From Octopus vulgaris (taxonomy: Eukaryota): 64,000 nucleotides of DNA. Positions 1,840 through 61,710 of the stretch are shown piece by piece (position 1 is the first letter of the stretch; each line of letters starts with the position of its first letter). The DNA is taken from assembly GCA_951406725.2 (NCBI GenBank), contig OX597820.1:11098001-11162000 (forward strand). The letters run 5' to 3'. A program made the position numbers and the translations under genes. The notes beneath the pieces are model-generated. The model did not search any database. It had not been told where the DNA came from and saw only the letters and a list, made by a program, of their open reading frames with translations.

Positions 1840-2185
1840 ATAATACAGTTCTATATTTAAGAGATGAGGAATTATTTACGTTATTTACATTATTTACATT
1901 TGACGGATATTTATCCTCTTCTTGTTTGTTATTAACACAACGTTTCGGCTGATATACCTGAACAACAACAACAACAAGAATAATAATAATAATAATAATA
2001 ATAATAATAATAATAATAATAATAATAATAACATCGAAAAATTCCTTAGGAATGAGAACCCAGGTTCGAAAGTTTTCCAAGACACCTGATGAAGGTTGGA
2101 GAGTATATCAGCCGAAAGGTTGTGTTAACAACAAACAAGATTTGGACAAATATCCGTCAAATGTAAATAATGTAAATAATATAAA
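1840..2185. mobile_element. Non-autonomous Penelope-pLTR-like inverted-repeat element around an (AAT)n tract
   Basis: About 1878-1957 is the reverse complement of 2104-2180; homologous to 19974-20667; carries a hammerhead motif. Confidence 0.75.
2081..2126 (+). ncRNA. Minimal hammerhead ribozyme, same family as 20567, stem III substitution
   Basis: GACAC-CTGATGA-A-GGTTG(gagagtatat)CAGCC-GAAA-GG-TT-GTGTT. Confidence 0.7.
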
Positions 2186-2412
2186 TAAAATATCTAGTGT
2201 GTTCTTTATTTTTGAAGACCAGAGGATGATTTGACGGGACCTGATTCAATTTAAATTTCACTGAGGTCGTCTTTGCCTTTCAAACCCTTCGGGGTCGATA
2301 AAATACGTACCAGTTGAGTAGTGGGGGTCGATGTAATCAGCCTGTCCCCTCCTTCGAACTTACTGGCTTCGTGTCAAAATTTGACACGAATATCAAATTT
2401 ACTTAAATAATA

Positions 2413-2866
2413 GGCGCAGCCGTGGCTGTGGTAAGAAGCTTGCTTCACAGGCACAGGGTTCTGGGTTCAGTCCCACTGTGTCGCACCCTCGGACCCACCA
2501 AGGCCTTGTGACTGTATTCGGGAGACTGAAACTTAAAGAAGCCCCTTATATATATATATATATATATATATATATATATGTATATGTATAGATAGATAGA
2601 TAGATAGATAGATAGATAGATAGATAGATAGATAGATAGATAGATACACATATATACAGTATGTATGTTAGTGTGTGTGTGTGTATTTCTTTGTCTCCCC
2701 ACCATCGCTTGACAGCCGATGCTGGTATGTTTACATAGCGGTTCGGCAAAGAGACCGATAGAATAAGTACTAGGCTTAGAAAGAATAAGTCCTGGGGTCA
2801 ATTTCTTCGACTAAAGGTGGTGCTCCAGCATTGCCGCAGTCAAATGGCAGGAACAAATAAAAGAAT
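2413..2866 (+). mobile_element. SINE family A
   Basis: Similarity to 62979-63374. Confidence 0.85.
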
Positions 2867-3530
2867 TAAATGAAAAACAGGCACATGTACATTAGTATAA
2901 CTGATAGGAATTCATAAAAATTGTACTGCGCAAGGTGCTAGTAAAATAGTCCGGTGGTCGCGGAAGTTTAAAGTTTCTGTCCGTAAAGTAGTGCTAATCA
3001 TAAGAGACCGCGACCACTGCTGACTGGAAAGTCGGTGTTGGATCTGTACTCCTAAATTTAAACTGAGATGGCCTTGAATTTTAGCGCTAAATAAAAACAG
3101 TTCGTGGCGTAACGAAACGGTAACACTTTTTTTCAGTCTGGTTGACGCCATTGTCTATCAAACGTTCTTCTCATACTCTTGGGATACACAAAAATACCAC
3201 AAAATCCAACACACGCCGTAACTTCTATAATTAAAGAATCCAATGCGTAGTTCCTGCATGACCAGCGTTGCGGTGCGATAGCAATTTTCCGTCACGGTTT
3301 CAAATCAAAGTAACTGATTAGTCATTTTGCTAAATATTCAACAATTATAATAAATAAGTTTTTTTACAAATTTCTTGTAAAAATATGTTTTTAGTATTTG
3401 TTTTAAAACCATGCACTATTTATTACAGACATTAGAAAACTTATATAAAATCAAGATTCATATCGTCATTAAAAAGGAGATTATTTTAAATTCAGTTTAG
3501 TGAGTAATTAAACGGATTATTATTCCTTGT

Positions 3531-3856
3531 GAGGGCGCGTGACTTAGTGGTTAGGGCATTCGGCTCATGATTGTAAGGTTGTGAGTTCGATTCCCGGCGA
3601 CGCGTTGTATCCTTGAGCAAGACACTTTATTTCACATTGCTCCAGTCCACTCAGCTGGCAAAAATGAGTAGTACCTGTATTTAAAAGGACCAACCTTGTC
3701 ACACTCTGTGTTACCCTGAATCTCCTCTCCCTGAGAATTACACTAAGAGTACACGTGTCTGTGGAGTGCTCAGCCACTTATACGTTAATTTCACGAGCAA
3801 GATGTTCCGTTGATCGTATCAACTGGGACCTTCGTCGTCGTAACCGATGGAGTGCT
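3531..3856 (+). mobile_element. tRNA-derived SINE family D
   Basis: A/B boxes, CCTTGAGCAAGACACTTTATTTCAC core; reverse copy at 37893-38218. Confidence 0.85.
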
Positions 3857-4130
3857 CTTTATTCGTATACTTTTTTTTACTTGTTTCAGTCATTGGCCTG
3901 CGGCCATGCTGGGGCACTGCCTTGAAGTGTTTTCGTCTGGTACTTATTCTGTCGTTTTCTGCGTGTTTGTTTGTTTTTATTTGTAGCAGCTAAACTACGG
4001 GAACGTAAACAAACCAGTACTGGTAATCATGTGGAGGACGGGGAAAAAACACAGCCACAGGTATAGTGACAAAAAAATTTCCAATGAAGCATCAAGTACC
4101 CTTTAAATCGTTAACATTATTGTTAAAGAT

Positions 4131-4600
4131 GTAGAGGCGCAATGGCCTAGTGGTCGTAGGCTCGCGGTTTCGATTCCCAGACCGGGCATTGTGAATGTTT
4201 ATTGGGCGAAAGCACATGATACTCCGACAGGGGGTGGGGGTGGCACACTCTGCTGTACTCTTTCAGCACAACTTTTTCTCACTCTTTCTTCCTGTTTCTG
4301 TTGTCTCTGTATTTCAAAAGGGCCAGCCTTGTTGGACTCTGTGTCACGCTGAATCTCCCCGAGAATTACGTTAAGGGTACACATGTCTGTGGAGTGCTCA
4401 GCCACTTGCACGTTAATAAATGAACTGCGACGTCACTGGTGCCAAGCTGTATCAGCCTTTGCCTTTCCCTTGGATAACACTGATGGCGTGGAGAGGAGAG
4501 GCTGGTATGCATGGTCGACTACTGGTCTTCAATAGACAACCATGCCCAGATTTGTGCCTCAGAGGGTCACTTTCTAAGTGCAATCATGACCAAAGGGGTC
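4131..4600 (+). mobile_element. Chimeric SINE (family C head, family D body, distinct tail)
   Basis: Homologous to 58628-59048 and to the body of 3531-3856. Confidence 0.78.
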
Positions 4601-59048: not shown

Positions 59049-59084
59049 CAGTATATATATATATATTCGACTACACTTTTACTG

Positions 59085-59935
59085 TTTTAAATTCCGCTGA
59101 GGTCGACTTTGCCTTTCATACTTTCGGGCTCGATAAATTAAGTACCAGTTACGTACTGAGGTCGATCTAATCGACTGGATCCCTCCACCAAAATTTCGAG
59201 CCTTGTGCCTAGAGTAGAAAAGTTTTCTTTACCGCTTTCACTCATTCGAGTGCGGCGATGTTGAGGCAGAGCTACCTTAATAGATTTAGTTGAACATATC
59301 GACGCAGTATTTTATCGTGTCTATCTAGCGATCTGCCATTTGCAGGATATAAAAGAAGCAGAGTATAACACATCCAGATACATATATACCTGTTTATATG
59401 TATGTATATGATTGTGTGTGCGCGTGTGAGTGTATATATATACCGTGGCACTCCGTCAAATTTTGCCGAGATCGACTTTGAACATCCCCACCTCTTCGCA
59501 AGCTGCCTAGTGACAAAAGAAAATTTGAAATAAAAAGGCGGCAAGCTGGCAGAAACGTTAGCACGCCGGGTGAAATGCGTAGCCGTATTTCGTCTGCCGT
59601 TACGTTCTGAGTTCAAATTCCGCCGAGGTCGACTTTGCCTTTCATCTTTTCGGGGTCGATAAATTAAGTACCAATTACGCACTGGGGTCGATATAATCGA
59701 CTTAATCTGTTTGTCTGTCCTTGTTTGTCCTCTCTGTGTTTAGCCCCTTGTGGGTAGTAAAGAAATAGGTATTTCGTCTGCCGCTACGTTCTGAGTTCAA
59801 ATTCCGCCGAGGTCGACTTTGCCTTTCATCCTTTCGAAGTCGATAAAATAAATGCCAATGAAAAAAACAAAAGGCATCGACGTAATCGCCTCATCCCCAC
59901 CTCCCCAAGCTGCCCTTGTGGCAAAATTTGTAAAA
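59085..59935 (+). mobile_element. SINE family B copies (59085-59222 and 59537-59935)
   Basis: Similarity to family consensus. Confidence 0.85.
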
Positions 59936-60646
59936 AATCATTATTATTCGTCAGCCAAATTCTTCACACATACTATGAGTCAGCCCTTCAACCTCACAGA
60001 GGTTTTAGGAAAAAATACTCAAGTACGCTTCAGCAGAGTGGATTCGACCTCCGAAAGTCACATGTTAAAAAGATAAAAAGCATATCTAATCATTTTAGTG
60101 GGGGAAAACATTGCTGAAAGCAGACGCAGTTTCCAACAAACCAACACAAGTAGAAAGGAGTATAATTCCATATAGTAAATATTTAGTTTTCTCGAAGTGT
60201 TTAGTTTAGTAACGGTAATCAAATTTACATTAATATGCAAATTTGCTTAACAACTTGTCGGTTAACTGCAGTATTCCGTATATCTAGAAGCTGTTCTCTT
60301 CTCCTTCATCGGCGGATTAGAACGGCTAAGCGGAAATTGCTACAGGATAACGATTGCAAACCCCGCATTTTCTTAATATATGCTAGTTTGCTATACTGGG
60401 GGACATATCCTGAATATCACTGACAATTTTGTGTGTGTTTGAAACGTAGATAAATATATATTTATTATAATAAATTTCTCTCTTCCCCAACACATGCTTC
60501 CCTCTCTATCCCGTTCTCTTTTTCGCACACTTCATATATGTACATATGTAAAAAAAAAAAAAATAGTGAGAGATTATCAATCCGGGAAACATACTTCATG
60601 AGCTCTCTGTTGGCACACCAGGCTAACAGTATTACTTAGGTTAAAT

Positions 60647-60873
60647 GCGGCGAGCTGGCAGAAACGTTAGCGCGCCGGACGAAATGCGTAGCCGTATTTC
60701 ACCTGCCGCTACGTTCTGAGTTCAAATTCCGCCGGGGTCGACTTTGCCTTTCATCCTTTCTGGGTCGATAAATTAAGTACCAGTTACGCACTGGGGTCGA
60801 TATAATCGACTTAATCCGTTTGTCTGTCCTTGTTTGTCCCCTGTGTTTAGCCCCTTGTGGGTAGTAAAGAAAT
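60647..60873 (+). mobile_element. SINE family B monomer
   Basis: Similarity to family consensus. Confidence 0.88.
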
Positions 60874-61567
60874 ATGTACAACTTAGGTTAGGGAAGGACT
60901 CCAAGTAATCGTTTGGTCGGGTCCCAAGTTATGGTTCATCACAATTCTATATTGTAAATCCGAGGATAGGCTTCGGATAAACTGCTCTTTACAGAGTGAT
61001 ATGTAATAGACAAGTTAAAATGAAAAAAACAAAGGCATCGGAGGAGGATCCATACCCTGCACACATATAAATATTTTTGCAAATTATAGTATGGATTGCA
61101 ATGCGTTGCTTACCCATAATTTTTAATTGAACTCAATTTTTTTTTAAGTATCACCATTGTAGGTATTTATACTCCGGTGAAATTAAGAAACCAACTCGTA
61201 AATAAACATAACTCTTGAATCCATTAGTGTACACACACCTACACACACACACACACACACACACACAGAGTCGCATATGTATGTACGTATGCACGTACAT
61301 GTGTCTACGCGCATAGGTACTCCATAGTTTAAACACACGCGGACGAGGGTCGATTCATTTGAAAAAGAAAGTGAACAAAATATGAACACTTGCTTATCGG
61401 GAAATTTGTAAGTTAGATTTTTTCTTTTTTTTTTATTCAAAGATAATCAAACCAAATGTTCATCATTTCGAGCCATTCCCCCAGTGCGTATTTCTGCCAA
61501 ATGTGGTGAAAATCCGTTCAATCGTTTTCCAGTAATTTTGCAAAAACACAGACAAATACATATAGTT

Positions 61568-61710
61568 CCTTTATTGTAACAAATGTGACTTACAGCTGTT
61601 TCCAGTTGTCATTATAGATATGTTTACCAATTGATAAACTGGCCACTTGAGTAAGCCTATCTATAATGTCTACTGGAAACAGCTGTAGGTCAAATTTGCT
61701 CAAATAAAGG
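61568..61710. repeat. ~143 bp palindrome whose arms contain a hammerhead 3' half (GAAA-CAGCTG-TA-GGTC)
   Basis: CCTTTATT...GACTTACAGCTGTTTCCAGT mirrored by ACTGGAAACAGCTGTAGGTC...AATAAAGG. Confidence 0.75.

Follow-up and report, generated by a model that had tools for sequence, protein, structure and literature searches.

Mostly decayed minimal hammerhead ribozymes at the 3' ends of probable Penelope-like families in Octopus vulgaris, one with a tRNA-like head

Introduction

Minimal type-I hammerhead ribozymes are a described feature of Penelope-like elements (PLEs), for which Cervera 2014 reports many families per genome, single motifs from truncated elements, inverted pairs, a bulged base and a U3-A8 core; the searchable files of its supplement list Lottia and Crassostrea and no Octopus. 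A bulged base after A9 and a palindromic stem III have been described for PLEs, and minimal hammerheads are reported to cleave weakly, as dimers (PMC4209133). It has also been reported that the PLE reverse transcriptase (RT) initiates within the pseudo-long terminal repeat (pLTR) and the start of the open reading frame (ORF), at two sites that define the tail, and that the hammerhead depends on protein but is not needed for insertion in vitro (PMC11167929). In algae, PLEs that are non-autonomous have been described (PMC8557442). A squid genome paper gives 235 Rfam hammerheads and an octopus repeat paper 190 PLE families, and neither the main text nor one supplement of the octopus repeat annotation contains the words 'ribozyme' or 'hammerhead'. 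Here, we describe hammerhead motifs in a 64,000-nucleotide stretch of the Octopus vulgaris genome (GCA_951406725.2, contig OX597820.1, positions 11,098,001 to 11,162,000 of the forward strand), referred to as the window, whose coordinates are used throughout.

The motifs belong to eight repeat families (A to F, G1 and G2), and we consider it probable that these are mostly decayed minimal type-I hammerheads at the 3' ends of the families, with A, D and F linked to Penelope ORFs of their own, the other five being likely Penelope ends, and the tRNA-like head of family A being a likely RNA polymerase III (Pol III) promoter. This reading is built on the family structure, the three ORF links, the inverted copies, the tail extension, and the tRNA-like head of family A with its sharp boundary.

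Hammerhead families in the window

A first-pass annotation, made from the sequence alone, had listed at least eight hammerhead loci from several unrelated families. GAAA and a palindrome are present at all nine listed coordinates, and these fall into seven high-copy repeat families (950-2809 first-look candidates per family in genome searches) with unrelated stems and flanks; 2081 and 20567 belong to the same family (A), and 7665/7716 form an inverted pair (family B). An eighth family, G2, at 61822 (-), and further inverted pieces of A and G1 were absent from that list. Eight of the nine listed copies are damaged, and the only intact minimal hammerhead among the window copies is that at 20572. 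The features are:

1846..2184, both strands: family A insertion 1, an inverted 5'-truncated piece, (AAT)n and a hammerhead tail
1846-1958, minus: inverted piece of insertion 1, with tail extension
2030-2184, plus: tail of insertion 1, core 2086
7572..7851, both strands: inverted pair of family B copies, damaged hammerheads with cores at 7702 (-) and 7721 (+)
11320..11720, plus: copy of family C with its core at 11519, a stem II of ~65 nt and a wobble-palindromic stem III
19979..20159, minus: family A inverted copy with tail extension, degenerate core
20341-20417, plus: family A tail extension and ~65 nt of the PLE ORF start, frame and residues as at locus L361
20422-20431, plus: 3' end of the family A tRNA-like head, joined to the ORF-start piece (whole feature 20341..20431)
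20516..20669, plus: family A tail with intact hammerhead, motif 20567-20611, core 20572, predicted cut after 20606
36749..36931, minus: 3' end of family D, core 36877; further upstream the family leads to a PLE ORF that has a CX4CX2C linker
49279..49403, minus: family E piece, core 49399, adjoined by a short interspersed element (SINE)
50682..51877, plus: family F Penelope-like ORF, 5'-truncated and frameshifted; RT 50682-51251, GIY-YIG 51200-51877 (PF01541)
51878..53070, plus: family F 3' region, tandem repeats, hammerhead variant with core 52968, end at (TA)n
61557..61735, both strands: inverted pair of family G1, retaining just the 3' half of a hammerhead with long stem II
61758..61850, minus: family G2 hammerhead, core 61822, mismatched stem I in this copy

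The damage differs between copies: stem III is mutated at 2086 (family A), stems I and II are both mismatched at 7702 (-) (family B) and carry one mismatch each at 11519 (family C), the core is broken at 7721 (family B), the first pair of stem II is disrupted at 36877 (-) (family D), the SINE replaces the 5' arm of stem I at 49399 (-) (family E), and at 61676 (family G1) the core is absent from the window copy, the family core lying ~90 nt upstream. The U3-A8 core and poorly paired proximal stem I at 52968 (family F) are both common to that family. The palindromic stem III noted in the annotation holds at the family level, although that at 11519 is ACATGTGT then A, rather than ACATGT.

A strict descriptor gives 1 match in the window, compared with a shuffle mean of 0.0-0.05 (60 and 40 shuffles), and relaxed descriptors do no better than background (5 vs a mean of 2.65, and 9 vs a mean of 8.5), so that motif counting within the window proves little. 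The Rfam matches listed for the window (150 of 241) include no hammerhead and are microsatellite-driven only, and a repeat search within the window is dominated by satellites.

At the family level, the motifs are genuine. In majority sequences built from the best 9-30 copies per family, which were ranked by likeness to the window copy rather than sampled at random, stems I-III pair around conserved cores, with sequences unrelated between families. The features of a minimal type-I hammerhead are found in the majorities of A, B, C, D and G2 and in at least one G1 copy, and the family-level descriptor is passed by 12/30 copies of A, 15/25 each of B, C and D, 1/18 of G1 and 4/9 of G2, as well as by 24/25 of F, only after stem I is relaxed to 1 bp. 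A bulged base follows A9 in A, B and D; the majority of B is intact, and a bulged A and a bulged G border its 3-bp stem II; the stem II regions of C and G1 are 65-90 nt long; and the family F core is U3-A8 covariant. When cofolded, the palindrome of B pairs between strands and that of 20572 does not. The first-pass annotation was right in taking the motifs for minimal type-I hammerheads of the Penelope type, diverse and with a palindromic stem III.

Genome-wide density

The genome searched comprises 2.8 Gb in 227 contigs, the window sitting on one of them. A descriptor search of the kind that the first-pass annotation had proposed was run on 60 evenly placed 10-kb stretches (600 kb), where it finds 25 strict motifs compared with 0-2 in 8 shuffles; 7 of the 25 come from one ~359-bp tandem array. 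The excess over shuffles appears with the strict descriptor and not with the relaxed ones in the window. Extrapolation gives about 117,000 motifs genome-wide (95% range 76,000-172,000), which falls to about 89,000 when the tandem array counts as one. With 2.0-2.7 strict motifs expected per 64 kb and 1 found, the window is ordinary and no hotspot. Families A and D have 11 matches each in the sample, corresponding to about 51,000 segments each (26,000-92,000), B, C and F have one each, and E, G1 and G2 have none.

Several other hammerheads were seen in passing. A ~359-bp tandem array at L181:2300-4550 (G000:C1:20.002-20.005 Mb), with near-identical canonical type-I hammerheads in both orientations, is a true non-LTR retrozyme array. 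The random 600-kb sample holds more than ten further hammerhead families, and further U3-A8-type motifs lie at L203:8363(-), L218:9959(+), L207, L230 and L237, one family occurring three times in 600 kb.

Links to Penelope ORFs

Families A, D and F each continue from their own Penelope RT/GIY-YIG ORF, contrary to the earlier view of them as non-coding elements. Where aligned, their proteins share 26-37% identity among themselves and with those of a further PLE family, Y (47% for F and Y), with GIY-YIG evidence coming from Pfam for F only and from the motif and homologs for A and D. A CX2-5CxxC linker, described as confined to Neptune/Nematis (PMC8557442), is present in D and F and missing in A, so that the family A ORF is likely of the Penelope/Poseidon type. 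Family F forms the 3' end belonging to the ORF found in the window itself, and its copies are 98-100% alike, with 5' ends staggered into the ORF. The annotation had RTs such as this one, at 50.7 kb, mobilising the hammerhead elements; that copy is 5'-truncated and frameshifted, and the only hammerhead it carries is its own (F, 52968). For the families that could be traced to an ORF, mobilisation in trans does not hold. For family D, a rare upstream extension used as query reveals 5' ends staggered beyond 1 kb and, at one locus, a ~1.4 kb CA-rich spacer followed by a third RT/endonuclease ORF; a ~215-bp unit with a fixed 5' end was rejected for D on account of these staggered ends and the ORF reached. 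Families B, C, E, G1 and G2 are likely Penelope ends too.

Other hallmarks are shared among the families. An inverted upstream copy accompanies 18/30 loci of A, 11/25 of B, 7/25 of C, 11/25 of E, 3/25 of F, 7/18 of G1 and 2/9 of G2, compared with inverted partners in 0/86 and 7/70 matches of two control SINEs, and an optional 3' tail extension is seen in A and C. A second same-strand copy is rare (0-3 per 9-30 loci per family), so that the families are not retrozyme arrays.

Family Y (L301-L330, e.g. G000:C5:5981596-5985915) is apparently a young, active PLE family, in which 95/95 scored matches lack stops and many lie in 775-aa frames. In 30 of 30 copies examined, the hammerhead bears C, not U, at core position 4, and the family E core may likewise have had C there. 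A GIY-YIG piece near G1 in L166 proved to be a family Y end and not the G1 parent.

Family A and its tRNA-like head

Three parts make up family A: a head of ~75 nt containing A- and B-box motifs, then (AAT)n, then the hammerhead tail. Among 30 head matches, the tail lies downstream in 22 and an inverted tail upstream in 12. When the head is compared with 40 tRNA calls of 7 amino-acid types (Ile not among them), its best local alignment, to host tRNA-Arg, scores 54, with at most 31 in 200 shuffles. At one head locus a PLE ORF end lies directly upstream, and with this ORF end as query, 23/30 copies run on into the head and 20/30 into the hammerhead tail. The ORF has an RT domain by Pfam and PLE-type homologs. 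At L361 the tail extension continues into the start of this ORF, and 20341-20417 of the window carries the same ORF start. Since the ORF end runs into head and tail, and the tail extension into the ORF start, family A is the terminal repeat of a PLE. A tRNA SINE with (AAT)n repeatedly hit by a separate PLE was considered and rejected, because head and tail are inverted together and because the ORF end continues directly into the head. Upstream of the core there is an ATG that shares the frame of the ORF start in 10/14 copies, the frame being open in 6, so that the hammerhead likely lies inside coding sequence.

The short copies of family A resemble tRNA-derived SINEs in having an A/B-box tRNA-related head, a fixed 5' end and no ORF. 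Their 5' end is sharp, just upstream of the head: 2/26 heads reaching -5 extend to -40 (tail-selected and incidental heads), compared with 81-90% predicted by a crude model of steady truncation, some matches being inverted partners. Pieces of the family A ORF are absent from the 600-kb sample, with one in 693 kb of other loci. Head allele G is carried by 24/32 short copies vs 5/21 ORF-bearing ones, the latter sample having been drawn with an A-allele query, and non-CpG divergence is 0.052-0.055 for ORF-bearing copies and 0.036-0.095 for short ones. At L014, L269 and L357, retrotransposon 3' ends that resemble the R4/Dong type are inserted in the (AAT)n of family A.

On the ORF side of family A, TTTT occurs 8 times in 32.7 kb of natural copies (0.24/kb) and not once in two near-full copies, compared with 3.9-4.7/kb in the long ORFs of families Y and F and 3.2/kb in a long interspersed element (LINE); five of the runs are single-copy, four of these differing from the column majority and one lying in a thinly covered part. 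Together with the sharp 5' end of the short copies, this deficit suggests that family A may be transcribed by Pol III. In three RNA-seq runs from one study (apparently unstranded, and probably of a related, other species), family A is abundant, with fold-back joints at the 5' end of its head, while family F is represented by 1 read.

Proposed mechanism and alternative explanations

In the mechanism that we propose, each PLE RT would prime within the repeat with the hammerhead and within the ORF start, and would usually stop early, often folding back, which would leave short ends with inverted 5' copies. The start of the family A RNA likely falls some 6-15 nt before the tRNA-like +1, and priming at the first RT site on this RNA would yield a unit of ~300 nt, head-(AAT)n-hammerhead, whose 5' end is fixed and each short copy of which would carry its own promoter and spread like a SINE. 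A promoter in the head, which is likely, would account for the tens of thousands of short SINE-like copies. The hammerheads are predicted to cleave only as dimers or with protein help. In a bolder version, which we think rather doubtful, A is a Penelope in which a captured tRNA gene serves as internal Pol III promoter and whose 2.4-kb ORF has been cleared of TTTT for Pol III read-through, so that it became its own SINE, with about 50,000 promoter-carrying hammerhead segments made via first-site priming; if true, this would be a Pol III-transcribed protein-coding retroelement, plus a SINE caught with its Penelope parent.

Several observations weigh against the proposed mechanism. The head is not called as a tRNA by ARAGORN or Rfam, and all family A ORF copies seen are broken, about 88-90% alike. 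The family D ORF link is a single locus, with an inverted upstream copy in 0/25, and in the unbiased 600-kb sample only 2/9 A-tail matches have an inverted partner. With the protein fixed, P(0 TTTT) is 0.04-0.13 over 483 aa, a weak deficit, which synonymous shuffles of the A ORF find not significant, and a short family F stretch is also low in TTTT (1.5/kb). In the RNA-seq runs, 73-77% of family A reads continue into unlike sequence, as in longer transcripts, and read ends do not pile up at the head or at the cut site. As to the ribozymes, 0/25 copies of family E pass the descriptor (with CpG decay, truncation and a query cut at stem I), and family F, with 1 proximal pair in stem I, has no hammerhead monomer fold. 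For B, C, E, G1 and G2, an ORF is not found within 1.5 kb (9-25 loci each, without targeted extension), which is weak evidence because A and D also showed none before a targeted search; the hoped-for link to autonomous PLEs is thus made for A, D and F and not for these five.

It could plausibly be, although we lean against it, that the short A copies are mere by-products with a tRNA-like passenger, whose 5' end reflects either a strong stop of the RT at the structured head and the small hairpin 5' of it or transcription by Pol II from within the pLTR, with neither Pol III nor a SINE lineage involved. A small hairpin does span the 5' boundary, with the fold-back joints there, ORF-bearing and short copies are of similar age by non-CpG divergence, and no discrete A RNA is seen in RNA-seq; PLE promoters have moreover been reported in pLTRs (PMC6765202). 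Against this explanation, A and B boxes are both retained at tRNA spacing, two near-full ORF copies lack TTTT, and head allele G is skewed to short copies, with the reservation about the query noted above. The boundary also lies at the position where a pre-tRNA leader is expected to start. A further alternative, that most families are non-coding and retrozyme-like and depend in trans on the RT of an active PLE, F or the young Y for instance, appears unlikely. The five families without a detected ORF, the young intact PLEs of family Y, the true retrozyme array at L181 and a 2026 preprint that ties animal retrozymes to PLEs are in keeping with it, whereas all three families given a targeted or direct test have their own ORF, copies of D and of F differ in their 5' ends by up to more than 1 kb, tandem arrays are rare among the window families, and F and Y bear their own, distinct hammerheads. 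What survives of the earlier non-autonomous idea fits the short A copies only, for which the likely RT donor is their own A parent. That a genome rich in AT and in palindromes would yield the motifs by chance is hardly credible: such a view would fit the relaxed counts in the window and the damaged state of the listed copies, but the family majorities restore complete hammerheads and the strict matches in 600 kb far exceed those in shuffles. Chance is refuted at the family level for A-D and G2, and is possible only for the function of E, F and G1.

Other features of the window

The LINE referred to above (27.6-30.8 kb) has an open 1042-aa endonuclease-RT frame at 27633-30761 (-) and an open upstream frame of 419 aa at 30641-31900 (-), and is possibly intact. 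A degenerate satellite with a 4-nt period spans ~7.4 kb at 39000-46400, and a frame at 62114-62494 (-) resembles a mariner-type transposase fragment. The microsatellites and SINEs of the window have an octopus-like appearance. The region ~49000-62000 has a 98-100% identical duplicate ~78.5 kb downstream (G000:C7:11225786-11238498), either a segmental duplication or an assembly artefact.

Comparison with known systems

Hammerhead-bearing Penelope ends are a known phenomenon, of which the octopus is a new host example; the tRNA-like head in the terminal repeat of family A is the new part, and in a literature search, judged mostly from listings, neither a tRNA-headed pLTR nor hammerheads from octopus came up. 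About 10^5 motifs are estimated in a genome whose recent octopus repeat annotation, in the parts named above, mentions none. Family A would document how an autonomous PLE can give rise to a SINE-like element, both the parent and its offspring being available for study. It also suggests how elements that combine Pol III and a hammerhead, such as SMalpha, may have originated, makes PLE promoter use and hammerhead function testable, and raises the question of how translation proceeds on an RNA whose reading frame contains a ribozyme.

Octopus tRNA-derived SINEs, OK, OR1 and OR2, were reportedly described by Ohshima and Okada in 1994. By description only, they share with family A a tRNA-derived head, a high copy number and likely the same host group, and family A may be one of the three, or may be partly catalogued in Repbase/Dfam.

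The window families are like the PLE minimal hammerheads described in Cervera 2014 in their many families, single motifs from truncated PLEs and inverted pairs, as well as in the bulge after A9, palindromic stem III and U3-A8 core. They differ from these in an estimated density about 10x the 9,000 reported there for Xenopus (with another descriptor, and extrapolated here), in the 65-90 nt stem II of C and G1, and in the C at core position 4, found in family Y and likely in E. The Poseidon element PAc of Anolis (Frangieh 2024, PMC11167929) is like A in that the hammerhead overlaps the ORF start rather than lying at the element end, and in having two internal 3' ends with an optional tail; A is unlike PAc as described there in its inferred start codon upstream of the whole hammerhead and in the tRNA-like head within the repeat.

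Non-LTR retrozymes (bioRxiv 10.64898/2026.07.22.740005; PMC7761336) are likewise short hammerhead units related to PLE pLTRs; however, they are tandem units, each with a hammerhead, and are described as promoterless, whereas the window families occur as monomers or inverted pairs. The schistosome SMalpha/Sjalpha elements (PMC6765202, PMC8490949) are like A in combining a Pol III-type promoter and a type-I hammerhead in a short retroposon. In these accounts SMalpha/Sjalpha are tandem and no autonomous parent is named, whereas family A copies are dispersed and the head lies upstream of the hammerhead, within the terminal repeat of an ORF-bearing PLE.

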